A stretch of 64,000 nucleotides of DNA from a virus (taxonomy: Duplodnaviria > Caudoviricetes). The stretch spans positions 2,095 through 66,094 of IMG/VR virus record IMGVR_UViG_3300020050_005381, one strand, 5' to 3'. The translations under genes and the position numbers were made by a program. How positions within the stretch are numbered: the first letter of the stretch is position 1; every line of letters begins with the position of its first letter. Below the pieces are notes generated by a model. That model was not told the origin of the DNA and did not search any database. It worked only from the letters and a program-made list of their open reading frames with translations. Shown here piece by piece: positions 22,578-60,644 of this stretch.

Positions 22578-23876
22578 TTACAGGTTTGTTGGAACCGAAC
22601 TTTCATTATACCTATGTACACCTACCTTGTAAATGGATAATACGGCCTCGGACAACTTCTTCTTCTCGACTACGGCGTCATATACCACTTCATCCATGGA
22701 GCCTTTGACCAGAAGATAGTAGTACTTGGCTACTGGAGTGTCTACTAGCACGATACGGTCTTTGAACTGCTCCCACTTGAGGTAGGAATAATTCATGGAG
22801 AAGATAACCATGTGCTGGTGGTGAGCCAGGTTGATAGCTTCCCCCGCCGAGGGGTTGAGCAGGGTTATCTGACTACGGTCTTTTGGGTCATATTGATGCT
22901 TTCCTCGAATCTGGACATATTGGATTCCACGCTCACTAAGGCCCAAGGCAATGGCGTCCATTTCAGCTTTGTAGTTCGCGACAACACAGACAGATTGTCC
23001 CTTGAGTTCCCCGTCGAGTAAACTCCAGAGGAAATCGAGCTTGTCCGAGTGGACATGATGGGTAGTTCCTTCGTCATCTTTGAGGTAGCCTCCGCAGAGT
23101 TGATGTAACTTCAAGGCCTTAGTAAGGATCATAGGGGCCGTTACCAGGTTACCCTGTATTTCCGTCATTAGGGCCGTTTCTAATTCAGCGTACGCCTGGG
23201 AAAAGGCCTCTCCGGGGATCACGGGGTACTTCCTGGAACGTATTAGCGTCTTAACGGTGGCCACTTCCTCCCGTGTGACGCGATAGGATATGCTCTTTAG
23301 GATCCGCTTGAACTCTTCCTGGTTCTGATACCCCTCAATGGTGGGGAATGGGTCTTCACGCCCGTTGATGAAGCGCTCTCCCATGATCAGATAGCGTTCG
23401 GAGAATCTACCCCAGGTAGGGAAGAGGTCGGGCCGAATGAACCTGAGCTGGGAGTAATAATCCGACATACAGTTACCCTGGGGAGAACCCGACAGTATCA
23501 ACCTGTACTGGCTAAGCTTGCCTAGCTTCCAACAGGCTTTAGTCTGCTGACTACCGCGTTCCTTGATTCGGTGGCTCTCGTCGATGATGGTCAGGTCTAC
23601 TCGACGTAGGATATCTCTTTGCTTGATACGGAAAGACTCGAAGCTGTAGATCTCAAAGTACTCTTGATCTAACCCAACCAGAGCAATCTCCTGTCTCCAG
23701 ACTGGGATGGCCTTCTTGGGACAGATGATGATGTTGTCAGTGCAGTTCCAGAGCTTAGCTAGAGTGAGAGCTGTGACCGTCTTGCCCGTGCGTTGCTGCA
23801 TGAAAAGGCCATAGCCCTGATGGGAAGAGGCCGCCTCAACCGCCAGCTGCTGGTAGGGTCTAAGCTGAAAGGTCAT
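22578..23876 (-). CDS. SF2 (SNF2-like) DNA helicase
   Basis: Walker A QRTGKT, IIDESHRIK, LILSGSP, GEAINL motifs. Confidence 0.85.
   Translation of the reverse strand: MTFQLRPYQQLAVEAASSHQGYGLFMQQRTGKTVTALTLAKLWNCTDNIIICPKKAIPVWRQEIALVGLDQEYFEIYSFESFRIKQRDILRRVDLTIIDESHRIKERGSQQTKACWKLGKLSQYRLILSGSPQGNCMSDYYSQLRFIRPDLFPTWGRFSERYLIMGERFINGREDPFPTIEGYQNQEEFKRILKSISYRVTREEVATVKTLIRSRKYPVIPGEAFSQAYAELETALMTEIQGNLVTAPMILTKALKLHQLCGGYLKDDEGTTHHVHSDKLDFLWSLLDGELKGQSVCVVANYKAEMDAIALGLSERGIQYVQIRGKHQYDPKDRSQITLLNPSAGEAINLAHHQHMVIFSMNYSYLKWEQFKDRIVLVDTPVAKYYYLLVKGSMDEVVYDAVVEKKKLSEAVLSIYKVGVHRYNESSVPTNL
22605..22633 (-). promoter_or_regulatory. Sigma70-type promoter TTTACA-N17-TATAAT
   Basis: -35 at 22628-22633, -10 at 22605-22610, 17-bp spacer. 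Confidence 0.75.
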
Positions 23877-27322: not shown

Positions 27323-27351
27323 ATTATACCCTAAGCAGGCCGGATGGTAAA
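27323..27351 (-). promoter_or_regulatory. Sigma70-type promoter TTTACC-N17-TATAAT
   Basis: -35 at 27346-27351, -10 at 27323-27328. Confidence 0.6.
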
Positions 27352-31433: not shown

Positions 31434-31572
31434 GTAAATGGCTCCAAGATTTGTGTTTCTTGATTAAGTGGATAAGTACTACACTTACATTATAGTACTG
31501 AGATAGCGTTATAGCCGAATCATTGCAATCATCTAAACCACGAATCTCTATCCTCCTCCAAAAGTCATCCAT
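31426..31572 (-). pseudogene. HNH endonuclease remnant with catalytic core deleted
   Basis: MDDFWRRIEIRGLDDC joined directly to ITLSQYYNVSVVLIHLIKKHKSWSHL, the two ends of the HNH genes at 21726 and 26037. Confidence 0.7.
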
Positions 31573-34042
31573 TATATTTCTCACCCTTCCAAGTGCGGCC
31601 GGCCCCCCATGTTCCGACTTCCAGGTCGGCCACGATGGGTACTGGCAGAGAGATACCCCAGTGATCCAGCAGCTCGGGATGCTCCATTCGGGCTTTGATC
31701 TGGGGGAGCATCTCATCCAGGAACTCTGTTTTGACCCACATAAGGATGGAGTCATGCACCTCCCCACGCACCCTGAGTTTAGCTCCACTGTCGGGCACTT
31801 GAAGGTTGTAGAATATATCCAACATGGCCATGACTTTCAAGTCACCAATGCAACCCTGAACGGGTGAATTGATGGCTTGACGCTCGCATTCGGCTTTCAC
31901 CATACGGTCTGGAGACCATATGCCAGGAAGCCGGCGTTTGCGACCGATGAGGCTTCTAACGAACCCATCCATCTTTACGAAGGTCTTCTGCCTATCATGC
32001 CAGATGGGGAGGGCTGAATAAGTGGAGAAAAAGGCCTGCTTAATGTCCTCGGCTTCCTGTAGCGATACCTCCCAGTCATACTTCAGCTTTGCGTATTCAG
32101 TGAACTTCTTAGCCCCCATCGAATAGAGAAATCCAAAATTCACAGCCTTAGCCTGCTTCCGCTTTTCCTTCCAGGGCTTGTTCAGTTCGATGGCCCTATC
32201 ATGTCCCATCTCCTCCAGGTAATCAAGGATGGCCACCATGCTCATCCCATCACAGTCCCCACGATCCTTCTCCACTGTGTCACGAGCTAACAGAAGATTC
32301 TCATTAGATCCACCCATCTTGAGCATACCAACACAGGTTCGCCAGTGGACGTCAATCCCCTCGTTGTAGCAACGTATGAGCTCCTCATCCCCTGATACGA
32401 TAGCCGCAATACGAAGCTCAGCCTGAGAGAGGTCACCCTGGATAAAGGTCCAGCCCTCTGGGGCCTCAATCAGGTTACGAATGATGCCATCCCGTGGTAC
32501 CTGGTGAAGACGCGAGGAGTATCGCCCAGTGACCGTACCATGCAGCTTGGTGCCCAGGAACAGGGAAGATCCAACCATATACTCTTCCCAGCCATCCACA
32601 TAAGTGGAAAGCATTTTCTGGTGAGAGCGGTAGTCAGTGAGCATTCTGACCACGGGATGTCCATCGAGTTCAGCCAATGCGGCTTCCCCACTGGACGGGG
32701 CGCCCTTATCAGTAAATACCCGGGGAGTCAGCCCCAACGTCCCGTAAAGGATCTCATTGACCTGTTTAGGGCTATTCCAATTTACAGTAGCCCCCGCCAT
32801 ATCATTCAGCTTTTTCTCTACGGTATCCAATAACAGCACCAGCTGCTCACGTACCTCAGCTCGTCGCTTCAGGTTAACGTGATGACCCTCTCGCTCGATG
32901 ACCTCATACATGCGTGAGGCAGGCATAGTTAGATGCTCATAGATATTGCGGGTCTCAGCATCCTGCATGAGCATGCGACGGAACAGCTTGGCCAGACGAT
33001 AGGTACGATAGCAGTCCCGGCCGCAGTATACGAACAGCTTCATGGCTTCCACTGCGCCCTTTTTCTCAGCCGTGGTAAGGTCATAGTCCGGAGCGTTCAG
33101 GAACAACCTGGAATTCTCCTTCAGCCCATGCGGAGTGTTCTCATCCAGGTTGTAGTGCATGAGCATGGTGTCGTCCTTGTTGTAGAAGGAGACGCCCATT
33201 TTCATATACAGCCAGAGACTGTCGAACTTCCAGTTCTGGTTGGTTACCGGGACATGCTGCTCGGACATCCAGTGTAGTAGCTTACGCTGAGCATCCGCTG
33301 GCAAAGTCGGGGCTTTTCGTATGGGTAGGACCCAGCAACCCTGTGATTTAGGCAGGTATACGCCCACGCAGTTTATGTAACTGTCCGGGTTATACCAGTC
33401 CAAACCCGAAGTTTCCAAGTCGCATACGAATTCGGGTTCATGTGGGAAGGCTTGCATGAACTCGTCCAGGTTTGAACGGTCGATGATGCGTACCCTGGGC
33501 TCCTCCCACTCGATTTCAGCTACGCCCTTGACCAGGTCACCAAACCGCTTGATGATCCGCTTGAACTCGGGCTCTTTACTGGGGTCGCGAAGTACATAGG
33601 CGGGAGAGTAGCAGGGGACATAGATCACTCCATCCTTCTCAATGAACTTACCCGCGACGCTGGAAAGGTTAGCCGCTTTGACTACTGACTTAGCCGCGGT
33701 CGCTCCCATGACGAGAACATACTTCGGTTTTTGTTCTTTGATCTCATCCTGTATATAGCCCGCACAGGCCTTACACTCAGAGGGCTCCACCTTCTTACCG
33801 TCCGGGGGCTGGCACTTGACGACTCCAGTGGCGTAATAGTCCTTGATTCCAACTCGATCAAGCTCTGAAATAAGGATCTTCCCAGGACCCCCGGTAAGGT
33901 ATTCACCACGGTTGATGTTAGTGGCACTTGGGGCATCCCCAATGATCATTACTCCAGAGCTAGCGGCAGACCCGTTCCCATAGAGACAAACAGTTGATGA
34001 AGATTCTGAAAGACTACAGAGGGTACAGTTTGGATTTCGCAT
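31565..34042 (-). CDS. polA: Family A DNA polymerase with N-terminal uracil-DNA-glycosylase-like domain and 3'-5' exonuclease
   Basis: CTLC...IIGDAP...VVKCQPP (UDG family 4-like); DLETSGL; GDLSQAELR; KAVNFGFLY; EVHDS. Confidence 0.95.
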   Translation of the reverse strand: MRNPNCTLCSLSESSSTVCLYGNGSAASSGVMIIGDAPSATNINRGEYLTGGPGKILISELDRVGIKDYYATGVVKCQPPDGKKVEPSECKACAGYIQDEIKEQKPKYVLVMGATAAKSVVKAANLSSVAGKFIEKDGVIYVPCYSPAYVLRDPSKEPEFKRIIKRFGDLVKGVAEIEWEEPRVRIIDRSNLDEFMQAFPHEPEFVCDLETSGLDWYNPDSYINCVGVYLPKSQGCWVLPIRKAPTLPADAQRKLLHWMSEQHVPVTNQNWKFDSLWLYMKMGVSFYNKDDTMLMHYNLDENTPHGLKENSRLFLNAPDYDLTTAEKKGAVEAMKLFVYCGRDCYRTYRLAKLFRRMLMQDAETRNIYEHLTMPASRMYEVIEREGHHVNLKRRAEVREQLVLLLDTVEKKLNDMAGATVNWNSPKQVNEILYGTLGLTPRVFTDKGAPSSGEAALAELDGHPVVRMLTDYRSHQKMLSTYVDGWEEYMVGSSLFLGTKLHGTVTGRYSSRLHQVPRDGIIRNLIEAPEGWTFIQGDLSQAELRIAAIVSGDEELIRCYNEGIDVHWRTCVGMLKMGGSNENLLLARDTVEKDRGDCDGMSMVAILDYLEEMGHDRAIELNKPWKEKRKQAKAVNFGFLYSMGAKKFTEYAKLKYDWEVSLQEAEDIKQAFFSTYSALPIWHDRQKTFVKMDGFVRSLIGRKRRLPGIWSPDRMVKAECERQAINSPVQGCIGDLKVMAMLDIFYNLQVPDSGAKLRVRGEVHDSILMWVKTEFLDEMLPQIKARMEHPELLDHWGISLPVPIVADLEVGTWGAGRTWKGEKYNG

Positions 34043-35342: not shown

Positions 35343-35563
35343 TCTACGTCATCCAAGTGAATTTGCGGTTGAAGGGCTACTTCCCTCAGGTCATACTTCT
35401 CAGGCTGGCCTTTGAATTGCTCCTCGGTGTAGATGAAAGCATGCTTTCCCCCAGTGACCTCGAAGATCTTGTCCCAAGCCTGATGTATGGTATCGGCGGG
35501 TACTCGAGAATAGCATCTCTCCAGATGCGACCCGAACCCATAGGTTACGAAAAATTCATTCAT
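35339..35563 (-). CDS. Small hypothetical protein
   Basis: ATGA coupling to both neighbours. Confidence 0.6.
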   Translation of the reverse strand: MNEFFVTYGFGSHLERCYSRVPADTIHQAWDKIFEVTGGKHAFIYTEEQFKGQPEKYDLREVALQPQIHLDDVE

Positions 35564-36357
35564 TTTAATGCCACTCGATCGGTTGTGAAGCAATGAAGGG
35601 ATGTGATGTGCATGGTAAGTGTCCCTGGAGCCACGTTGTCCCAGTCCATTTCCGGCCTGGCCAAACGGCACTGCTGAAGAACCCATAACTGAAGTCTAAG
35701 GGTAAGATATACGTCGTCCCTAAAATGACGCACGAAGTCGCAGGAGCGTAGATAGTAAACGCAATGGAGTTTATTCTCTCGCATAATAAAGTGGTAGCCC
35801 AGGGAACAGGGAACGCGCTTCTCCTGAACGGCGGCTCCCAGGTCCTCAGGGAACCAGACCGGCAGGTAGGCTTGCCTAGTGGTCGGTTCGTTGGCCAGAA
35901 TGGTGACAAGATCATCTAAGTCTCCGTAGTGGAAACGAACGCCCTTATGAGGGGCTATAGAGTCGGAGTGAAGTACCCCGTCCGGGGTTGTTCCCGCAGC
36001 CTTAGGCCAATACCTTTCAGCATACGAATGATCGAACTGGGGATCTTTCTCTCCAGAACGTCGATGAGTATCCGCGGAATTGGAGTACGGCCATATGCGC
36101 CATGTCTGACCAGGGTTAATAGGATCACCAGATACACGCTCCTGAGTAAAGTGAGCGTCAGCCCAAGGGAGGTTTGGATGAATCTGATCACGATAGAACT
36201 CCAAATTTTCAGTGGGGAGATCATAAGTAAAGGAGTAGTTTAACAACTCCAGCATGGGTTGAGGGGCTTTGACTGATTGCCAACGAGCTCCCTCAACAGT
36301 AGGCGCCACTAGCATACGCTTAGTGATGTCCTGAGCAATGGATTCAAATGGTCTCAT
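35560..36357 (-). CDS. Thymidylate-synthase-fold enzyme 1 (probable dCMP hydroxymethylase/methylase type)
   Basis: RQAYLPVW...RVPCSLGYHF...YYLRSCDFVRHFRDD...SLHCF; Asp at the E. coli ThyA Asn177 position. Confidence 0.85.
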   Translation of the reverse strand: MRPFESIAQDITKRMLVAPTVEGARWQSVKAPQPMLELLNYSFTYDLPTENLEFYRDQIHPNLPWADAHFTQERVSGDPINPGQTWRIWPYSNSADTHRRSGEKDPQFDHSYAERYWPKAAGTTPDGVLHSDSIAPHKGVRFHYGDLDDLVTILANEPTTRQAYLPVWFPEDLGAAVQEKRVPCSLGYHFIMRENKLHCVYYLRSCDFVRHFRDDVYLTLRLQLWVLQQCRLARPEMDWDNVAPGTLTMHITSLHCFTTDRVALK

Positions 36358-51781: not shown

Positions 51782-51810
51782 TTTACACCCGCACCTAGAC
51801 GAGGTATAAT
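51782..51810 (+). promoter_or_regulatory. Promoter TTTACA-N17-TATAAT for terminase operon
   Basis: -35 at 51782-51787, -10 at 51805-51810. Confidence 0.7.
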
Positions 51811-51817
51811 CAGTCAC

Positions 51818-52171
51818 ATGACCGTAATCTCTACCCAGCCCAATAAACGCGACCGTAATCAGGCGGAAGTCTTGAGCGGGATGGGCGCCACAGAAGAGTT
51901 CATAGCCGATCATCTTCACTTGTCCATAGAAGAGCTCAACCTCTACTACTCTAAAGAGCTCAAGTCAGGCGCAGAGGAAGCTAACCTCCAGGTAGCTAAG
52001 ACCTTCCATGAGCTAGCCACTTCTGGAGAACATCCCCAGATGACCCTAGCATGGATGAAGATGAGAGCCGGTTGGTCTGATGCAGCACAGAAGGAAGAAG
52101 AGGGTTATGATGATGACTCCGCCTCCCTAGCAAAAGACAAGCTGCTTAAGCTATTGAACCGCGGCAAGTGA
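51818..52171 (+). CDS. terS: Terminase small subunit
   Basis: HTH (FIADHLHLSIEEL...YSKEL...GAEEAN...LAWMKMRAGW); directly upstream of terL. Confidence 0.8.
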   Translation: MTVISTQPNKRDRNQAEVLSGMGATEEFIADHLHLSIEELNLYYSKELKSGAEEANLQVAKTFHELATSGEHPQMTLAWMKMRAGWSDAAQKEEEGYDDDSASLAKDKLLKLLNRGK

Positions 52172-53643
52172 CGATCGAACTCACACCTCAGGATCTTGAC
52201 GAGCTCACACCCCAGGACATAGAGCATTTACTTCACCAGTGGGAACTCTGGTCAAGACCCAATCAATTACCCCCAGACCATCCAGAATCCAGTAACCACC
52301 TCCCGGACCAGCCAAACACCGATTGGGAGTTCTGGATCTCACTGGCTGGCCGTGGTTTCGGAAAAACGCGCCTCGGTGCGGAGCAAGTCTTGCGATGGGT
52401 TGACCAAGGGCATAGACGCATTCACATTATCGCACCAACCACGGCAGACACTCGTGATGTTATTGTTGATGGTGAGTCGGGGATCCTAAACGTGGCTCAT
52501 CCCAAGAAGCGTCCCCATTATGAGCCATCCAAGCGACGTCTTACCTTCCCCAATGGGTCTATCGCCCTGCTCTATTCAGCTGAGGAACCCGAGCGACTTC
52601 GTGGACCCCAGTGTAGCGCATTGTGGTGTGATGAGATGGCAGCCTGGCAGTACCCCCAAGAGACTTGGGATCAAGCAATGTTCGGACTGAGACTTGGTAA
52701 CCATCCTCAAGTGGTAGTAACCACCACACCAAAACCCATACCCCTGATCAAGCGATTCATTGAGTCAGCTCGCAAAGACCCAAGGCGTTGGGTGCTGACC
52801 TCAGGCTCAACATACGACAACAAAGCTAACCTCGCCAAAACCTTCTTCACGCAGGTGGCGCAGTATGAAGGCACCCGACTGGGTCGGCAGGAGCTATACG
52901 CTGAGCTGATCGATCCTCGAGAGACGGGTATCGTAAAAGACTCGTGGATCAACATGTATCCTGCGGCATCAGAACTCCCGAAATTCGAGTTTGTGCTGCA
53001 GAGCTACGACACGGCGTTCACAGAGAAGACCCTAGATCGCAAGACAAAAGACCCAGACCCCAGCGCAGCAAGCACCTGGGGCGTGTTCCGCATCACCGAC
53101 GCACTAAGGGAGAAATGCCGCAATCCCCCAGCCAAGCACATCAAATACGGCGTGATGCTCCTAGACTCCTGGTCAGACCACCTGGGGTTCCCTGAGCTGC
53201 GCATCAAGGTGCAGAAAGAGTACCAGAGCAGCTACTATGGCCCGGAGGGCGACGAAAGACGCGCTGACATCGTCCTGATTGAGGATAAAGGCTCAGGCAT
53301 CTCCCTGCGCCAGGACCTGCAGCTCGTGGTGCCAGTACGCCCGTACAACCCTGGACGCGCTGATAAGCTAGAGCGACTGCATGCGGTGTCCCACATACCC
53401 TGTATGGGCATGGTTTTCGTACCAGAGAGCCAACGCAAGCCAGACACATTCATCAACTGGGCAGATCCGCTCATAGATCAGGTATGCTCATACCCCCTGG
53501 TTGAGCATGATGACCTCATGGACACCGCAAGCCAAGCGCTTCAGTACCTGAAAGACTCTGGATGGCTAACACCAGACCCCGAAGAGGAAGAAGAAGAGTA
53601 CGCAGACTCGGTCTATACCCGAAGGAATCCATACGCTGTATAA
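52168..53643 (+). CDS. terL: Terminase large subunit
   Basis: AGRGFGKT, LRGPQ...WCDE, VVTTTPK, SYDTA, IEDKGSG, HDDLMD. Confidence 0.95.
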   Translation: MTIELTPQDLDELTPQDIEHLLHQWELWSRPNQLPPDHPESSNHLPDQPNTDWEFWISLAGRGFGKTRLGAEQVLRWVDQGHRRIHIIAPTTADTRDVIVDGESGILNVAHPKKRPHYEPSKRRLTFPNGSIALLYSAEEPERLRGPQCSALWCDEMAAWQYPQETWDQAMFGLRLGNHPQVVVTTTPKPIPLIKRFIESARKDPRRWVLTSGSTYDNKANLAKTFFTQVAQYEGTRLGRQELYAELIDPRETGIVKDSWINMYPAASELPKFEFVLQSYDTAFTEKTLDRKTKDPDPSAASTWGVFRITDALREKCRNPPAKHIKYGVMLLDSWSDHLGFPELRIKVQKEYQSSYYGPEGDERRADIVLIEDKGSGISLRQDLQLVVPVRPYNPGRADKLERLHAVSHIPCMGMVFVPESQRKPDTFINWADPLIDQVCSYPLVEHDDLMDTASQALQYLKDSGWLTPDPEEEEEEYADSVYTRRNPYAV

Positions 53644-53662
53644 TGGGTATTTGAGGTATCAT

Positions 53663-54085
53663 ATGAATCAAGAGACATTTGAAGACTCCTTCAACCTGCT
53701 CTGTGGGGACAAGATCGGACAGGGAGCCCACCGCACAGTGTATGCTTGCAAGCTTTGCCCTGACCGGGTAGTGAAGGTGGAGCCAGATGACTATCGGTAC
53801 TTTGCTAATGTTCTAGAGATGAAGTTCTGGAATGATCACGAGCATTACCCCAAAGTCGCCCGATGGTTGGCTCCCTGTACACATCTATCGCCCGAGGGTC
53901 GCATTCTGCTACAGAAGAGAGCCGATCCTCTCCCTAAGGACTTTCAGCTCCCAGACCAGATGCCGTCATTTCTGACCGACTTCAAGAGGGAGAATTATGG
54001 AATATTAGGGGGCCAACTAGTTTGCATAGACTATGCTATGACCATACCCAATCCAAGTATCAGGCTGAAAAGAGTGAATTGGTAG
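53663..54085 (+). CDS. Minimal protein-kinase-like enzyme
   Basis: IGQGAHRTVY, VVKVE, NVLE, TDFKRENYG, IDYA; GAGGT RBS and TGTATAAT upstream. Confidence 0.75.
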   Translation: MNQETFEDSFNLLCGDKIGQGAHRTVYACKLCPDRVVKVEPDDYRYFANVLEMKFWNDHEHYPKVARWLAPCTHLSPEGRILLQKRADPLPKDFQLPDQMPSFLTDFKRENYGILGGQLVCIDYAMTIPNPSIRLKRVNW

Positions 54086-54093
54086 GTCTGACG

Positions 54094-54122
54094 TTTACAA
54101 ATTGATCTTGACAAGATATAAT
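54094..54122 (+). promoter_or_regulatory. Promoter TTTACA-N17-TATAAT
   Basis: -35 at 54094-54099, -10 at 54117-54122. Confidence 0.75.
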
Positions 54123-54149
54123 TGATTAACGAGACTCGAGAATATCATT

Positions 54150-54776
54150 ATGGCTGCACCACAGTCCGCGCTTGCAGCAATATACCGTGCAATCAAGAAG
54201 CTTGCCTCTAATCCAGAGGCTCAGGACCTAGCCTCTAACAGAGCCAAAAACCTGTCTGAGCAAGTTGATCTCTCGAGATACTCTCCTGCCACCATCGCTC
54301 GCGCCACGACTGGCTCTCCTATGGCTCAAAGGGGCTTCTCTGAAGCTCTAGGCTCGACCCGATCACCCTTCGCGTCCACTCTGATCCGCCCGAGCCAGTG
54401 GGCTGAGCATACCCCTGCCTTAGACCCATTCAGGGACCGCAACATCATTGAGTACCTTAAGAGCGTTCTTCCAAAAGAGAAGCTCAAAGAGGCACCTTTC
54501 CTCTGGGTGAATGACCGTCCAGGCGGGCTAGAAGCGGGGTTCGAAGGGCGCCACCGCATGAAAGCGATGCAAGAGCTGTATGGCGATGATCCAGTGCTCA
54601 CGAACCTACTCCCTGGACAGGAATTCAAGCTACAGGAGCTTGACTATCCTAAAGGTATGTGGGATGAGCGGGTTCAAGGCCCAAACCGAATGAGCCCTCT
54701 GGAGATGCTCAGGCAGCAGATCATGTTCGGCGACAAGCCGATTGACATCAGTCCCCTATGGGTGAATGAGAAATGA
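54150..54776 (+). CDS. Hypothetical protein with ParB-like EGRHR motif
   Basis: GFEGRHRMKAMQELYGDDPV. Confidence 0.55.
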   Translation: MAAPQSALAAIYRAIKKLASNPEAQDLASNRAKNLSEQVDLSRYSPATIARATTGSPMAQRGFSEALGSTRSPFASTLIRPSQWAEHTPALDPFRDRNIIEYLKSVLPKEKLKEAPFLWVNDRPGGLEAGFEGRHRMKAMQELYGDDPVLTNLLPGQEFKLQELDYPKGMWDERVQGPNRMSPLEMLRQQIMFGDKPIDISPLWVNEK

Positions 54777-55327
54777 GCATTTTAGCTAAAATCGCTCAAT
54801 TCGCCTCTCAACCGGGGGCTTTGCGTCGTTTGTTTCGAGGTGACTCAATAGAGGCTATATCCACGCCACCAGCCAAGCTGAGGCGCATAGAGAATGGTTC
54901 GGATGATTTCTATAATCAGATGCAAGATGCTAGTAAAGCTCAGTCGGCTCATTATGCCAAGTTGAAGGCTAAGAAACCAGACAACACCCCCATACCCGCG
55001 GACATTCTGCAAGAGCTCATGGAGGGTAGCAACACCGGACGGCATCTCTATGAGATCATGTCTCCAGCACGTGGATGGACCGTAGTCGATCCTCAGAGCC
55101 AGTACATAGCGGGAATCCTGTCTGAAGGTAAGGGGCCAAGCATTACTAACCCTACCCTCAATGCTCTGGCCAGAGAGTATCGCAAACCCCACGCGACTGC
55201 TGCAACGCAAGAGCTGGTAGATTACTACCGTAGCAAAGGCCTAACCGTAGACCCCAAGAGTTGGGGAATGGAACTAGCGAAGGGCGGCCTAGTAAGAATG
55301 AAGGAGTGTAATTGTGGCAGGACTTAA
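54773..55327 (+). CDS. Hypothetical protein with C-terminal AKGGLV motif
   Basis: Coupled ORF; LRRLFRGDS near N-terminus. Confidence 0.55.
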   Translation: MSILAKIAQFASQPGALRRLFRGDSIEAISTPPAKLRRIENGSDDFYNQMQDASKAQSAHYAKLKAKKPDNTPIPADILQELMEGSNTGRHLYEIMSPARGWTVVDPQSQYIAGILSEGKGPSITNPTLNALAREYRKPHATAATQELVDYYRSKGLTVDPKSWGMELAKGGLVRMKECNCGRT

Positions 55328-57113
55328 GGCTTCACCCCGCAACTCAGTGCTAGGGGCCATCTCTGATGCTCTGGCCTCGGCCAAGAGACAAGGAAATCGG
55401 GTAGATGTGCCCTTTCTGGGTGGTCTAGGCGACCTTCTGATGGGCAAGACCCCAGAAGAGGTAAATGAGTGGGCCTATGGTAATGCCCCTATGCGAGTTA
55501 CGGGTCGAGGCACTGGTAGCTTAATCCCCCAAATGAAGACTGGACGTGGAGAGCAGCTACTCGACGCCGTCACTACCTTACCAGGTATGATAGCAGCTCC
55601 GGCTAGAGCAGCTCCAGCATTAGCCAAGCATGCCGCAGGTCAGGTACATCGGGGTATGATGGGCGAAGGCCCCCTCAGAGGCGCGCTAAGTGCGGTGGCT
55701 CCCCTGAACGTGATCAAAGACAAGGGAGGCAACTGGATACCTCAGCACATTGAACAAGCGATCAAACCAGAGCTTAGAGCTACTAATCTTGAGCAGCTAA
55801 TGAATGACCCCACGATCGCTCAATTTCTTCAGCCCAGGGCCAAGGCCATGGAAAAGGCCCGCACAATGGACAAATGGATTCAAGGTGCACTGAAGAACTA
55901 TATCACAAAGGACATGGCTACTGAGGGAGACCCCATCAGAAAGCTGGCCGAGCAGAACATTCTGCATATTGACCCCCAAGAGCTCAATGTCAACATGAGC
56001 ACTTATGGCAAGTGGCCCAGTCGGGGTCAATCCTTCCACGGTAAGTCAGACATGGCCAAAACCTGGGAAGGCGCTTCAGACAACGTCATCAGCCGAAACA
56101 CCGCGGGCATACTACAGCAGGAACGTGGCCCAGCAGTGGATCAGAACCCCTGGATTGACAAACTTAAGGTTGATGAGCCTGTATTCTCTCTGTATGAGCC
56201 TAAGTACACCATGAGAAACCTGGGCTTAGATCGTTTGCATCAACACGTCTATGACGCGCTACTCGAGGGTCGCATTCACCCCGAGCAACTGAACTCTGGA
56301 TCCTTCGGTGTGGAAGCCGCTGTACGCGATGCACACAACGTACGCATGGCCAAAGCTGCAGCGGAAGAGAAGGCCGCTCTAGAGTCACTCAAAGGCGAGG
56401 CTGTCTTCGAGCACAAGGCCTATCCCGAGGGCTATCGCTGGGTCGAGTTTAAAGAGCCTAAGGGGTCAATGACTCCAGATGAGTTTGAATCCGCTAATGC
56501 TCATCTGAGCCCCAAGGAGTGGGATGAGGCTATGGATAACTACCGAAGGAACATTCGTCCTCGGGGCCGAAACAGCCTGCAGAAATCGCTAACCGCTGAA
56601 GGCGACTACATGGGCCACTGCGTGGGTAACTACTGCGACGACGTGATAGCTGGCAACAAACGGGTCTTTGCTCTGCGCGACCCTGAAGGGAAGCCCCGTG
56701 TTACAGTTGAGGCTCAGAAAGGTAGCGATGACTCTTGGTCTCTCAATCAGATCAAAGGCTCGGGCAAGAGAGACCCCTCTCAGGCTATCACTCCAGAGAT
56801 ACTGGAGACCGTTCAGCCCTACCTTAAGGACTTCCTGAACTCACAGCCCTGGGGTACGGTCAGAGACATGAAGAACACTGGGATGAGGGATATGTCTGAG
56901 TATGCGGGCCATAAAGGATCTCGCTTCATGACTCTATCAGAGCATGATGAGCTATTAAAGGCTAATCCTGGGCTGAAGTCTCTCATGCAAGATGCGATTG
57001 ATGACCCGAACTTCAATGATGGCTGGATTCCGGACGAGCATATTGAGATGGCCGAAGGTGGATTAGTGCCTCCACCGCATTTTGAGGATCTAGATAGGTT
57101 TCTGGGGCGGTAA
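55314..57113 (+). CDS. Large protein with PcfJ-like domain and C-terminal AEGGLV motif
   Basis: LTAEGDYMGHCVGNY...FALRDPEGKPRVTVE...QIKG. Confidence 0.7.
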   Translation: MAGLKASPRNSVLGAISDALASAKRQGNRVDVPFLGGLGDLLMGKTPEEVNEWAYGNAPMRVTGRGTGSLIPQMKTGRGEQLLDAVTTLPGMIAAPARAAPALAKHAAGQVHRGMMGEGPLRGALSAVAPLNVIKDKGGNWIPQHIEQAIKPELRATNLEQLMNDPTIAQFLQPRAKAMEKARTMDKWIQGALKNYITKDMATEGDPIRKLAEQNILHIDPQELNVNMSTYGKWPSRGQSFHGKSDMAKTWEGASDNVISRNTAGILQQERGPAVDQNPWIDKLKVDEPVFSLYEPKYTMRNLGLDRLHQHVYDALLEGRIHPEQLNSGSFGVEAAVRDAHNVRMAKAAAEEKAALESLKGEAVFEHKAYPEGYRWVEFKEPKGSMTPDEFESANAHLSPKEWDEAMDNYRRNIRPRGRNSLQKSLTAEGDYMGHCVGNYCDDVIAGNKRVFALRDPEGKPRVTVEAQKGSDDSWSLNQIKGSGKRDPSQAITPEILETVQPYLKDFLNSQPWGTVRDMKNTGMRDMSEYAGHKGSRFMTLSEHDELLKANPGLKSLMQDAIDDPNFNDGWIPDEHIEMAEGGLVPPPHFEDLDRFLGR

Positions 57114-57155: not shown

Positions 57156-59885
57156 GTGGAAAATGAAGTCGAAGTAGAGCTTCCGGAAGAGGAATTAGGG
57201 GAATTCACTGAGAATCCCGATGGTTCCGTGGACTTTGAGGATCTTACCGCTCCTCAGGCCGGAAGCACCGACTTCCTGAACAACCTGGTCCTCACACTGC
57301 CTAAGGACGTAGTAACTGCCATTGCTGATGAGCTTATCGAGCTTATCGAGCGTGACAAGGAGTCGCGCGAGAAAAGGGACAAACAGTATGAGGAAGGACT
57401 TCGTAGAACCGGACTTGGCAATGACGCACCGGGCGGCGCTGAGTTTGAAGGCGCTAGCAAAGTGGTACATCCAGTTCTGGCCGAAGCCTGTGTGGATTTT
57501 TCCAGTCGAGCAATCAAAGAACTCTTTCCAGCATCAGGTCCTGTCAAACCTTGGGTCACGGGTGAGACCACCACACAGAAGCTAGACAAAGCCAATCGCA
57601 AGACTCGGTACATGAACTGGCAGCTCACGACCCAAATCGAGGAGTATCGTGGGCAACTTGAACAGCTTCTAACCCAGCTTCCTCTGGGAGGCAGTCAGTA
57701 TCAGAAGTTCTGGTATGATGAGCGCTTAGGTCGCTCCTGCGTCGAGTTCGTTCCAATCGATGAGATTTACTTGCCTTACTCTGCCTCGGGTTTCTATACT
57801 GCGGCTCGAGTTACGCATCGTCAACTGCTCACCAAGTATGAGTTCCGCCGTCGAATCACCTCTAAGCTGTATGAAGACATCTTCTACACGGATACTCACT
57901 CAGCCCCGGAAAGTACAGCTTCAGGCTCGGCCAATGATAAGATTGAGGGTCGTGAAGAAGACGGCTACAACGAAGATGGCGTTCGGGCGGTCCTTGAGAT
58001 CTATTGCTGGCAGATGTTGGATGGTGATGATATCACTAAAGGTGAGTCAGCTCCTTACATCGTTACTATCGACGAAGACACCGAAAAAGTCCTATCCATC
58101 TATCGCAACTGGAAAGAAGGGGATGATCGACTCCTCAAGCTTGACTGGTTTGTGGAGTGGAAGTTCATACCTTGGCGAGGGGCTTATGCTATTGGCTTGC
58201 CACACCTTATCGGTGGCCTTGCTGCTGCACTCACTGGCGCCCTTCGTGCTCTTCTAGACTCGGCTCACATTAACAACGCCGCGACGATGCTCAAGCTCAA
58301 AGCTGGGCGGATCTCTGGGCAGAATACTGAAGTCAGTGTTACTCAGGTTTGTGAGATAGAGGGTCCGGCTGGCATCGATGACATTCGCAAGCTAGCTATG
58401 CCGATGCCATTCAATCAGCCCAGCCCAGTTCTGCAGACGCTTATGCAGGATCTGTACGGGCTGGCTCGTGGAGTAGTGGCTACAGCTGAGGACAAGATAG
58501 GTCAAGTAGGCGACCGTACTCCGGTTGGCACCACGATGGCGCTGATTGAGCAGGGTTCCAACACCTACTCAGCCATCCACGCTCGCCTGCACGAATCCCA
58601 GAAACGTGCTCTAGCCATCCTGCATCGTCTGAATGGTACTTACCTGGATCAGGAAGAGGTCATTGAAGACCAGGGAGAGCTCACGGTTCGTCGTGAAGAC
58701 TTCCTGGGCACGATGGATGTTATTCCAGTTTCTGACCCCACGATCTTCTCTGAAGCACAGCGGTTCGCTCAGACACAAGCCATTATGCAGATGGCTCAGC
58801 AAGACGCAGGCAATCCTAATGTTCCTTGGAACCAGGTCAACGTTCGTCGTCGTGCTCTCAAGCAGATGCGGATCGAGAACGTTGATGAGCTGCTACCACC
58901 ACAGAAGGATCCGGTTACTGCGGACATCCTGACAGAAAACCTTCAGTCTCTGCGGGGCTTCCCACTGAAGTCCGCTCCTGAGCAAGATCATATGGCTCAC
59001 ATCCAGGGGCATCTGGTCTTCATATCCTCACCTGTGCAGTCTCAGAATCCCCTGGTGCCTCCACAGGCTTTGGGCGCTCTCATGGGTCACATTGAAGAGC
59101 ATATTCAAGAATACACCCTAGTGGTTACTCAACAGGCTGCGGCTCAGATCATGATGCAGACTGGGGCTCCACAGGTGAATGATCAAGTGGTGGCTCAAGC
59201 CATAGGCATGGCTCAGCAACAGCTAACGCAAGAGCTGGGTCCGGTCATTCAGCAGATTCAACAGGTTCAGCAAGCTCTGCAGCAGCGTACTCCGCCCCCG
59301 CCGATGCCTCCGGAAGTACAGGCGTCCATCAAGATCGCGGAGATGGACATCCAGCGGAAGACGCAGATGGATCAAGCTACTCTGCAGAACAAACAGTCGG
59401 AGCAGCAGGCCAACCAGCAACTTGAGCAGGCCACTCTGGCCATGAAAGCCAGCCAGGCTCAGTTCCAGCAGCAAATGGAACAGTCTCAGCAGCAGTTCGA
59501 CAACTACATTGAACAGATCAAGGTCCAGTCTGAAGCTGAAGCTAAGGCTAATAAGGACCAGGTTGAACTCCTGAAGAATGAGATGGATAATCACCAGAAG
59601 CAGATGACTGAGCTTCTGAAGAATCGTGATGACAATGAGACCAAGATTGCTATCGAGCAGATGTCTCAGCAGCTGAATACCATGACTGAACAAGTTCCGC
59701 AAGAGCCCATTGACCTTACTCCTCACCTTGAACAAATGAACCAGATACTATCTCAGATGGGAAAAGACCGTACCAACGATGCTCTTGGTGAGGTTATGAA
59801 CGGGCTCCGAGCCACAATCGAAACACTCAATAAGCCTAAGACCATCGTTCGTGATGCTCAGGGCAAAGCTCAGGGGATTCAATGA
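57156..59885 (+). CDS. Portal protein (P22-like with long C-terminal helical barrel)
   Basis: HPVLAEAC...FPASGPVK, LPLGGSQYQK, GAYAIGL, TPVGTTMALIEQG; Q-rich coiled-coil tail. Confidence 0.9.
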   Translation: MENEVEVELPEEELGEFTENPDGSVDFEDLTAPQAGSTDFLNNLVLTLPKDVVTAIADELIELIERDKESREKRDKQYEEGLRRTGLGNDAPGGAEFEGASKVVHPVLAEACVDFSSRAIKELFPASGPVKPWVTGETTTQKLDKANRKTRYMNWQLTTQIEEYRGQLEQLLTQLPLGGSQYQKFWYDERLGRSCVEFVPIDEIYLPYSASGFYTAARVTHRQLLTKYEFRRRITSKLYEDIFYTDTHSAPESTASGSANDKIEGREEDGYNEDGVRAVLEIYCWQMLDGDDITKGESAPYIVTIDEDTEKVLSIYRNWKEGDDRLLKLDWFVEWKFIPWRGAYAIGLPHLIGGLAAALTGALRALLDSAHINNAATMLKLKAGRISGQNTEVSVTQVCEIEGPAGIDDIRKLAMPMPFNQPSPVLQTLMQDLYGLARGVVATAEDKIGQVGDRTPVGTTMALIEQGSNTYSAIHARLHESQKRALAILHRLNGTYLDQEEVIEDQGELTVRREDFLGTMDVIPVSDPTIFSEAQRFAQTQAIMQMAQQDAGNPNVPWNQVNVRRRALKQMRIENVDELLPPQKDPVTADILTENLQSLRGFPLKSAPEQDHMAHIQGHLVFISSPVQSQNPLVPPQALGALMGHIEEHIQEYTLVVTQQAAAQIMMQTGAPQVNDQVVAQAIGMAQQQLTQELGPVIQQIQQVQQALQQRTPPPPMPPEVQASIKIAEMDIQRKTQMDQATLQNKQSEQQANQQLEQATLAMKASQAQFQQQMEQSQQQFDNYIEQIKVQSEAEAKANKDQVELLKNEMDNHQKQMTELLKNRDDNETKIAIEQMSQQLNTMTEQVPQEPIDLTPHLEQMNQILSQMGKDRTNDALGEVMNGLRATIETLNKPKTIVRDAQGKAQGIQ

Positions 59886-60223
59886 TGCCTGAAAAAGATC
59901 CCCTAACTTGGACGTTGGGAACCTGGGCGCTCGCCCTCGCCATGGCCATGGGCGGTGGACTGGTCAACTGGTACGCTAAACTGCGTAGTGGCCATGTAAG
60001 GGTCTTTAATTTCGTCGAGCTAATAGGCGAGATCTTCACCAGTGGATTCGTAGGTCTAGGGGTATTCATGTTGCTCGACTCATGGAATCAGCCCGCGGGT
60101 CTCTGCGCCGCAGCAGCGGGTGTATCTGGTCACATGGCAACACGCCTTTTGTTTGCAGTTGAACGCGCCGTAGAGCGACAGCTCAATGCCTTCGGCGTCA
60201 CTAAAACGACTAAAGGAGAGTAG
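59882..60223 (+). CDS. Holin
   Basis: Three hydrophobic segments (GGLVNWY, FTSGFVGLG, AAAAGVSGHM), basic C-terminus, upstream of endolysin. Confidence 0.75.
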   Translation: MMPEKDPLTWTLGTWALALAMAMGGGLVNWYAKLRSGHVRVFNFVELIGEIFTSGFVGLGVFMLLDSWNQPAGLCAAAAGVSGHMATRLLFAVERAVERQLNAFGVTKTTKGE

Positions 60224-60227
60224 CTCT

Positions 60228-60644
60228 ATGGCTTCTCGCTCTCTGTCTGACCTAAATCCCATAGTCAAAGCCAAAGCTGAGCATTTTCTGGCCGCTTGTA
60301 AGCGCGAGGGTCTCGATATTCTAATCTACTGTACCTATCGTTCTGGTGCAGAACAGGAGGTATTGTATGAGCAAGGACGCACCACACCCGGCAAAATTGT
60401 TACTAACGCTCGGGCTGGTCAATCTTGGCATAATTGGCGCTGTGCATTTGACTTTGTTCCGCTGGTGGCTGGGAAACCTGCATGGAACGACAAAGCGCTC
60501 TACCTTAAAGCTGGTGTCATCGCGGAATCTGTCGGGCTTGAGTGGGCTGGGCGTTGGACGGGAAAATTGCGGGAATCTGCACATTGTCAGTACAGCGGAG
60601 GACTGTCAATAAAGGACCTTATTGACGGAAAGGTGATCAAATGA
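60228..60644 (+). CDS. Endolysin, M15-family (L-Ala-D-Glu) peptidase
   Basis: TYRS..EQ..LY.QGRT, SWHNWRCAFD, ESAHCQ. Confidence 0.9.
   Translation: MASRSLSDLNPIVKAKAEHFLAACKREGLDILIYCTYRSGAEQEVLYEQGRTTPGKIVTNARAGQSWHNWRCAFDFVPLVAGKPAWNDKALYLKAGVIAESVGLEWAGRWTGKLRESAHCQYSGGLSIKDLIDGKVIK

Follow-up and report, generated by a model that had tools for sequence, protein, structure and literature searches.

A candidate minimal kinase gene downstream of terL

The stretch of DNA considered here, a window of 64,000 nucleotides that covers bases 2095-66094 of a 66,094-bp tailed-phage record with direct terminal repeats (IMG/VR record IMGVR_UViG_3300020050_005381; Duplodnaviria, Caudoviricetes), carries, directly downstream of its large terminase subunit gene terL, a small gene whose 140-amino-acid product almost certainly adopts a kinase-like fold with an intact active site. 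This protein, referred to here as the mini-kinase, belongs to a widespread viral family in which the catalytic residues of protein kinases are strictly conserved and the helical C-lobe, as far as a structural model can tell, is absent. Megablast against cultured phages with the gene and its surroundings, 16 kb in all, returned no match, and no cultured phage is therefore close at the DNA level. The gene and its immediate surroundings, numbered from the first base of the window, are as follows.

52168-53643, plus strand: terL, the large terminase subunit gene, directly upstream (PF03237, 7.9e-29; phrog_2 and others)
53653-53656, plus strand: ribosome-binding site GAGG, 6 nucleotides 5' of the ATG, as read from the sequence
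53663-54085, plus strand: mini-kinase open reading frame (P0001), complete, stop codon included (140 amino acids; phrog_4301, E-value 1.4e-37; AlphaFold2 predicted local distance difference test score, pLDDT, 97.1)

The mini-kinase open reading frame (ORF) is a real gene. It extends from an ATG at 53663, 19 nucleotides past the terL stop codon, to a TAG at 54083-54085. Because an alternative upstream start, a TTG at 53651, overlaps the ribosome-binding site, and because a database protein that is 99% identical to the mini-kinase is also 140 amino acids long, the ATG at 53663 is taken as the start; another close database relative is 83% identical. An earlier, sequence-only reading of this DNA had described a protein of about 140 amino acids directly after terL, provided with a ribosome-binding site of its own, and both statements hold: the ORF is complete at that length, terL is confirmed by its matches to PF03237 and phrog_2, and the GAGG stands 6 nucleotides before the ATG. 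The G+C content over 53800-54199, which takes in the kinase ORF and the following spacer, is 0.46-0.50 as compared to 0.53-0.59 in terL and the downstream ORFs, a mild dip that would fit an acquired accessory gene.

Conserved catalytic residues

The motifs from which a kinase had been proposed are encoded within the ORF as listed below, with conservation values from an alignment of 137 diverse representatives that are 34-52% identical to the query.

53714-53743, plus strand: Gly-rich loop IGQGAHRTVY, residues I18-Y27, with R24 in place of the third Gly (G19 93%, G21 99%, R24 100%, V26 93%)
53768-53782, plus strand: strand beta3, VVKVE, residues 36-40, with K38 invariant; aligns with the VVKVE lysine strand of VRK2
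53807-53818, plus strand: helix C, NVLE, N49-x-x-E52, both named residues invariant (from conservation and the AlphaFold2 model)
53975-54001, plus strand: catalytic loop TDFKRENYG, T105-G113, of the form D-x-K-x-x-N and non-RD, that is, without Arg before the catalytic Asp (D106 100%, K108 84%, N111 98.5%, G113 100%)
54026-54037, plus strand: DFG-like Mg-binding motif IDYA, I122-A125; family consensus D-Y-G/A (D123 99%, Y124 100%)

Residues R24, V36, K38, N49, E52, P101, D106, G113 and Y124 are invariant in the alignment, and G21, N111 and D123 are at least 98% conserved. Two residues outside the catalytic set, S76 (96%) and G79 (98%), are near-invariant as well, and the C-terminal tail, which ends with a Trp 15 residues past IDYA, is conserved and basic, with Arg or Lys at positions 134, 136 and 137. 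Thr or Ser, and not Arg, precedes the catalytic Asp, and non-RD kinases have no need for activation-loop phosphorylation. A Lys two residues past the catalytic Asp is characteristic of protein kinases of the Ser/Thr class, and not of the aminoglycoside phosphotransferase (APH) or choline-kinase types; this Ser/Thr-type loop is present in the family, and its Lys, K108, is kept in most members. Judged from the alignment, the conserved residues are the full protein-kinase catalytic set, and a catalytic base so strictly kept speaks for catalysis over mere nucleotide binding. The sequence-only reading had placed every one of these motifs correctly, and their conservation in the 137 homologues lends them weight that a single sequence could not.

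Predicted fold and homodimer

An AlphaFold2 model built with the 137-member alignment has a pLDDT of 97.1 and a predicted template modelling score of 0.89. Its helices comprise residues 3-13, 48-59 (helix C) and 63-66, with none past residue 66, and from strand b5 (residues 81-85) to the C-terminus it consists of strands and loops alone, so that the family would appear to lack helices aD and aE, the activation segment and helices aF-aI. The predicted architecture is an N-terminal helix, an N-lobe of five strands plus helix C, a short linker rich in proline that replaces aD/aE, the catalytic loop, the Mg motif and the tail. The sequence-only reading had held that nearly all of the usual C-lobe is missing; the distance from IDYA to the end of the protein agrees, and the model is even more reduced than had been supposed.

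Comparisons of the model with solved structures consistently return kinase-like folds. All of the listed matches in a Foldseek search of the PDB are kinases, the best being OspG (4bvu, E-value 2e-4), followed by NleH1/NleH2 and then by RIO1/RIO2. VIA-align was run two ways, as an unbiased search of 48,161 PDB chains and as a re-scoring of Foldseek's own list; the unbiased list contains kinase-like folds and one SAICAR synthetase entry, and two PDB lists with Foldseek input, of 50 listed matches each, contain kinase-like folds throughout except for one SAICAR synthetase entry in the second. In the unbiased search the Z values are 9.1 for DRAK1, 8.8 for Rio2, 8.3 for APH(2''), 7.9 for HopBF1 and 7.7 for both the RNA kinase ArkI and NleH1. 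Re-scoring of the Foldseek list gives 9.6 for the RIO-kinase chain of 6zxd (129 residues aligned with a root-mean-square deviation, rmsd, of 3.1), 9.2 for PRPK (137 of 140 residues aligned) and 8.7 for HopBF1, and across the lists BRAF scores 9.2-9.5 and Rio1 8.5-8.7. Because these values are tied across kinase-like families, the assignment to a kinase-like fold is firm but the subfamily is not.

At the level of sequence the signal is fainter. A profile search against PDB sequences gave eight weak matches (E-values 0.65-2.2), seven of them to kinase proteins and five on the region of the Gly loop, Lys and Glu; the Gly loop aligns to the Gly loop of VRK2, CK2a, BRAF and Rio2, and in VRK2 and CK2a K38 falls on the lysine strand. 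A phmmer search against PDB sequences returned chance-level matches to ribosomal protein L13 alone. The elements by which the protein-kinase-like (PKL) fold is recognised are nonetheless found together in the mini-kinase, namely a two-part fold, a Gly loop with the beta3 Lys and helix-C Glu, and a catalytic Asp/Asn with an Mg-binding Asp. The earlier proposal of a stripped-down kinase, for which structure prediction and a fold search had been suggested as checks, thus gains from both: a kinase fold is predicted with high confidence, its matches are kinase-like folds, and its catalytic residues are invariant or nearly so.

Prediction of two copies together gave a score of 0.62, as compared to 0.01 for the best of three controls. 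Among proteins solved as one-chain pairs 20 of 30 reach that score, and among those solved as single chains 1 of 23 does; the counts hold only roughly here because our own alignment was used. Three runs agreed in 100% of contacts, with a partner pLDDT of at least 86, and the predicted interface is symmetric, comprising residues 1-14 of the N-terminal helix, residues 30-32 and 39-42, and the b4-b5 hairpin (74-83), within which S76 and G79 fall. The modelling supports a putative symmetric homodimer.

A widespread phage family

The mini-kinase matches a single PHROG, phrog_4301, which is labelled "unknown function", and scans of the protein against Pfam, NCBIfam and PADLOC found no family. A full HMMER scan of 1.84 billion representatives, with clusters drawn at 50% identity, found 1,014 homologous clusters at an E-value of 1e-3 or below, 720 of them at 1e-10 or below. 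The best 150 of the 1,014 clusters are 103-202 amino acids long, and a search for fused forms among longer proteins found none, which is weak evidence; short length therefore seems to be the normal state of the family and not the product of truncation. The family is almost entirely viral. Matches occur in 2-3 of 400 sampled bacterial genomes, within one proteobacterial class, and a pattern-dependent scan of genome contigs gave two loci. By tblastn, 88 cultured-phage records carry a mini-kinase, mostly siphophages of Pseudomonas aeruginosa (PaMx11, where it is gp73, PaMx25, NP1, Ab19, ZC01 and the Yuaviruses), and other carriers infect Xanthomonas, Variovorax, Sphingobium, Erythrobacter, Dinoroseobacter, Sphaerotilus and the cyanobacterium Pseudanabaena. 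Two GenBank records label a family member "serine-threonine kinase" or "kinase-like protein", and a search of the literature on Pan1, Mesyanzhinovviridae and minimal kinases found no paper on the family.

Many of the carriers are thymidine-hypermodifying phages, in which the 5-hydroxymethyldeoxyuridine (5-hmdU) DNA kinase is a P-loop enzyme, gp49 of PaMx11 and gp54 of M6 (PMC8989533). Identity of the mini-kinase with that enzyme was considered and rejected, its homologue in PaMx11 being gp73, and a tie to thymidine hypermodification was likewise rejected, as this genome has no homologue of PaMx11 gp49 or gp46 (amino-acid:DNA transferase) and just a divergent thymidylate-synthase-like gene. The latter (35560-36357, minus strand; PF00303, 1.1e-6) is 29% identical to part of PaMx11 gp51 and could encode a deoxyuridine monophosphate hydroxymethylase.

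Genomic context and transcription

In 45 IMG/VR loci, gathered with a narrower family alignment than the 137-member one, the position of the mini-kinase gene is not conserved. PaMx11-like phages carry it among genes for DNA ligase, a RIIA-like protein, a hydrolase and an exonuclease, a Yuavirus carries it among small unknown genes, and at other loci it stands next to helicase, head, tail or sheath genes. Proximity to terL nevertheless recurs: the two genes lie within 4 kb of each other in 12 of the 45 loci, in this window and in cyanophage Pan1, and in six contexts the mini-kinase directly abuts terL, on either side. At one IMG/VR locus (L016:3415-6138) it lies between terS (PF03592, 31.7 bits) and terL, whose start it overlaps by 7 nucleotides. 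Since the terL proteins next to it fall into different PHROGs (phrog_2 and phrog_5989), a hot spot at a module boundary accounts for this proximity better than a specific partnership would, and the mini-kinase is read as an accessory gene that tends to insert where modules meet, its context not being evidence of a packaging function. Variation of this kind also means that context gives no target.

No conserved neighbouring partner gene was found in the 45 loci, the recurrences being terL proximity and some MazG-like neighbours. Several unrelated loci have, at a distance of one to three genes on the upstream side of the mini-kinase, a gene for a MazG-like nucleoside triphosphate (NTP) pyrophosphohydrolase, recognised by PHROG matches and not by Pfam (L033:2501-3337, L011:2970-3614 and L042:3000-3305, and clusters c4/c55, comprising L037, L041 and L049). 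The gene that immediately follows gp73 in PaMx11, gp74, carries the annotation NTP hydrolase.

The features that bear on transcription of the gene in the window are the following.

51782-51810, plus strand: strong sigma70-like promoter consensus TTTACA-N17-TATAAT upstream of terS, from which the unit is probably transcribed (11/12 match)
51818-52171, plus strand: probable terS, which would encode the small terminase subunit and opens the putative terS-terL-kinase unit (phrog_309, 5.4e-6, weak)
53637-53644, plus strand: TGTATAAT, in which a hexamer resembling a -10 takes in the terL stop codon; it departs from the canonical extended -10 and is probably a chance occurrence
54094-54122, plus strand: second TTTACA-N17-TATAAT, 9 nucleotides past the mini-kinase stop codon, marking the start of the next unit (11/12 match)

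With one mismatch allowed, TTTACA-N17-TATAAT occurs four times in the window, where 0.12 occurrences are expected. The other two sites are on the minus strand, at 22605-22633 and 27323-27351, and the four, which lie in the replication and packaging modules, look like the phage's own set of strong promoters for host RNA polymerase. Because two strong sites bracket the three genes, and because the promoter and terminator scan lists no terminator-like site after terL, terS, terL and the mini-kinase gene most likely form one putative transcription unit driven from the 51782 promoter. The sequence-only reading had instead given the mini-kinase an extended -10 of its own. The sequence TGTATAAT is indeed present at 53637-53644, but nothing separates its TG from TATAAT, where the canonical TGnTATAAT has a single spacer base, and a search for the canonical pattern did not find the site; it has no -35 and is absent from the promoter scan. 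A lone TATAAT is a chance-level match, and the site is therefore probably fortuitous.

Downstream of the mini-kinase gene, three ORFs on the plus strand (54150-57113) separate it from the portal gene. Two of them, of 208 and 184 amino acids, match no PHROG or Pfam family; the third, of 599 amino acids, includes a PcfJ-like segment (PF14284, 1.7e-6), and the 184- and 599-residue proteins share the sequence A-K/E-GGLV near their C-termini. The portal gene itself (57156-59885, plus strand) is unusually long at 909 amino acids, phrog_1216 covering residues 158-689 alone, and an endolysin-like gene (60186-60644, plus strand; phrog_2649, 7.7e-27) follows some 300 nucleotides past it, inside the structural module. 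Elsewhere in the window, an 825-amino-acid family-A DNA polymerase (31565-34042, minus strand) has, ahead of its 3'-5' exonuclease and polymerase domains and fused to them, an N-terminal domain of the uracil-DNA-glycosylase superfamily (PF03167, 8e-21).

Probable activity and alternatives

Taken together, the conserved residues and the model favour, by a modest measure of confidence, a constitutive, loosely specific and probably dimeric Ser/Thr-type kinase that acts on host or phage proteins. In such an enzyme ATP-Mg would be bound under the G-x-G-x-x-R loop by the K38-E52 pair, N111 and D123, and D106 would be the catalytic base when phosphate is passed to a hydroxyl. The most likely acceptor would be a protein Ser or Thr, because K108 stands two residues after D106, as is typical of Ser/Thr protein kinases, and the enzyme should be constitutively active and loosely specific, because it has no activation loop in the model and is of the non-RD type. 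It would probably work as a symmetric dimer of N-lobes, and its gene would most likely be co-transcribed with terS and terL from the 51782 promoter. As to its role, the analogy with the kinase of phage T7, drawn already in the sequence-only reading, and one with minimal effector kinases suggest that the mini-kinase may modify host or phage proteins for the benefit of the phage, either in takeover of the cell or in counter-defence.

A fuller account can be offered tentatively. It would hold that the protein is a competent kinase of about 140 residues without C-lobe helices, active as a symmetric N-lobe dimer, constitutive and loosely specific, and that many mutually unrelated phages, of Proteobacteria as well as of cyanobacteria, direct it at host proteins, defences included. 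The mini-kinase would then stand beside the T7 kinase as a second such enzyme, independent of it and much smaller, and, from its place between terL and the portal gene, might be delivered with the virion.

Several observations weigh against a protein kinase of this sort. The likeness in fold is generic, as Z values of 8-9.6 are tied among families that include ATPases (RIO, PRPK/Bud32), the RNA kinase ArkI and APH(2''), and the elements by which protein kinases bind peptides (the activation segment, aF and aG) are all absent from the model. The position of the gene varies among relatives, and here it sits with packaging genes and not with evident early genes, which fits an early takeover role like that of T7 poorly. 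The searched literature shows no biochemical data for any member of the family.

The first two of these observations bear on the nature of the acceptor. Aminoglycoside phosphotransferases and the archaeal tRNA 2'-kinase ArkI are kinase-fold enzymes with non-protein acceptors, and the mini-kinase might likewise phosphorylate a small molecule, a nucleotide (perhaps one used in signalling), a sugar, a lipid or a nucleic-acid hydroxyl, a reading that we regard as unlikely. APH(2''), ArkI (8yv5, with an rmsd of 3.1 over 110 aligned residues) and SAICAR synthetase differ from the protein kinases by no more than about 1-2 Z units, and the absence from the model of every docking element for a protein substrate would suit such an enzyme, as would the invariant R24 and the conserved basic tail, which could bind a phosphate-bearing substrate. 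The gene, moreover, is often found in or beside modules of nucleotide and DNA metabolism, in several loci with MazG-like pyrophosphatase neighbours. Small-molecule kinases of this fold, however, normally hold their substrate with large helical inserts in the C-lobe, of which the mini-kinase has none, and the Lys after its catalytic Asp, 84% conserved, marks Ser/Thr protein kinases; nor is it the one nucleic-acid kinase that its relatives might suggest, the P-loop 5-hmdU DNA kinase (gp49; PMC8989533), neither gp49 nor gp46 having a homologue in the genome.

The tied Z values raise a second question, whether phosphotransfer takes place at all. Among the best VIA-align matches are the RIO-kinase chain of 6zxd, Rio2, Rio1 and PRPK, the last over nearly the whole protein. 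RIO and PRPK proteins are mainly ATPases inside larger complexes, and the very small size of the mini-kinase suggests the need for a partner. An ATP-binding or ATPase switch of the RIO or Bud32/PRPK kind, or a binder or decoy resembling a pseudokinase, is nonetheless improbable, as the family conserves a phosphotransfer set that includes the base D106 and K108 and goes beyond what nucleotide binding needs, and no conserved neighbouring partner gene was found in the 45 loci.

A role linked to packaging, in which the protein would act on terminase, portal or DNA, or would be loaded into the capsid and injected with the unknown proteins of the terL-portal interval, draws on the recurrent proximity to terL (within 4 kb in 12 of 45 loci, this window and Pan1, and abutting in six contexts), on the L016 arrangement between terS and terL, and on the position of the gene in that interval here, but is very improbable, given that the best-sampled relatives (PaMx11-like and Yuavirus phages) carry the gene among DNA-metabolism and small early genes far from terL, that its terL neighbours come from more than one PHROG (phrog_2 and phrog_5989), and that the mini-kinase has no AxGGLV-type tail such as is seen on the downstream ORFs.

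For the favoured reading, a loosely specific Ser/Thr-type protein kinase, the question of activity is directly testable because the family occurs in cultured, genetically tractable Pseudomonas phages (PaMx11, NP1, Ab19 and the Yuaviruses).

Comparison with known kinases

The phage-encoded protein kinase with which the mini-kinase invites comparison is that of phage T7 (T7K, gp0.7), which disarms many bacterial defences by mass phosphorylation and so acts as a broad counter-defence; its family is PHROG 2828 and carries a DPV motif (PMC13645617). Both proteins are phage-encoded, the mini-kinase would share with T7K the lack of regulated activation, and the two have a similar stretch from the Gly loop to b3 (26 columns, 35% identity). 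T7K differs in its length of 359 amino acids, its DNA-binding and shut-off domain, its expression as an early gene, and the DPV motif where the mini-kinase family has D-Y-G/A. Membership of the gp0.7 family was rejected, as the query matches phrog_4301 alone, hhalign aligns 26 columns at 45% probability, and the motif in the mini-kinase is D-Y-A. In view of what T7K does to defences, another family of putative phage kinases, widespread and not related to it, is an obvious candidate for a similar role, one that, if true, would matter for the phages used in therapy against P. aeruginosa.

A further likeness is to YrbL (PF10707), a PhoP-regulated, kinase-like protein of Enterobacteria, which has the same unusual Gly loop, G-x-G-x-H-R-x-x-Y, followed by a strand with K flanked on either side by I or V; the likeness is confined to this Gly-loop signature. 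Weak PF10707 matches occur in 16 of the 137 family members (best E-value 2.4e-5). Membership is not demonstrable, as the protein of the window has no PF10707 match (curated cut-off 31.5 bits) and hhalign aligns 28 columns at 24% probability. The YrbL model (pLDDT 89.7), unlike that of the mini-kinase, keeps long helices before and after the catalytic loop, and in a BFVD fold search with the YrbL model the mini-kinase family is absent from the top 50 viral matches.

Among cellular kinases, the canonical Hanks-type enzymes have elements that the mini-kinase model lacks, that is, the activation segment, the APE motif and helices aE-aI (subdomains VIa and VIII-XI), and the corresponding profile, Pkinase PF00069, matches neither the query at an E-value of 10 or below nor any of the 137 relatives at 0.05 or below. 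RIO, Bud32 and PRPK have the highest VIA-align scores and, like the mini-kinase, no activation loop; they differ in being 220-290 amino acids long, in keeping C-lobe helices and in acting on ribosome or KEOPS complexes, and no match to the RIO1 Pfam profile was found. The catalytic loop of RIO and Bud32/PRPK is without the Lys after the Asp.

Reduced kinases are also found among bacterial effectors. HopBF1 (6pwd/6pwg) is a kinase of about 175 amino acids with a reduced C-lobe and matches the mini-kinase with Z values of 7.9-8.7 over 116-122 residues; it is 9-11% identical, larger, and targets eukaryotic HSP90. OspG of Shigella and NleH1/NleH2 of enteropathogenic and enterohaemorrhagic Escherichia coli are the best Foldseek matches (4bvu, 4q5h, 4lrj and 4o96, E-values 2e-4 to 1e-3). 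They are minimal kinases without subdomains VIII-XI and, like the mini-kinase, consist of a stand-alone core without an activation loop, in their case of about 160 residues (PMC12756638); the Lys, the catalytic loop and the Mg-binding Asp are likewise intact. The template modelling score (TM-score) is 0.45-0.51 and sequence identity 13-16%, and neither Pfam scans nor searches of PDB sequences gave a match to these effectors. In its model the mini-kinase has no helix between b5 and the catalytic loop, and hence no aD/aE, and has an extra N-terminal helix. OspG and NleH act in eukaryotic cells, and OspG needs E2~ubiquitin, neither of which is applicable to a phage of bacteria. The kind of protein is thus a known one, a minimal PKL kinase; what is new is a phage family without a Pfam name that is more reduced than OspG, NleH or HopBF1, and whose members, if active, would be among the smallest kinase cores known and would reveal the parts of the fold that phosphotransfer really requires.

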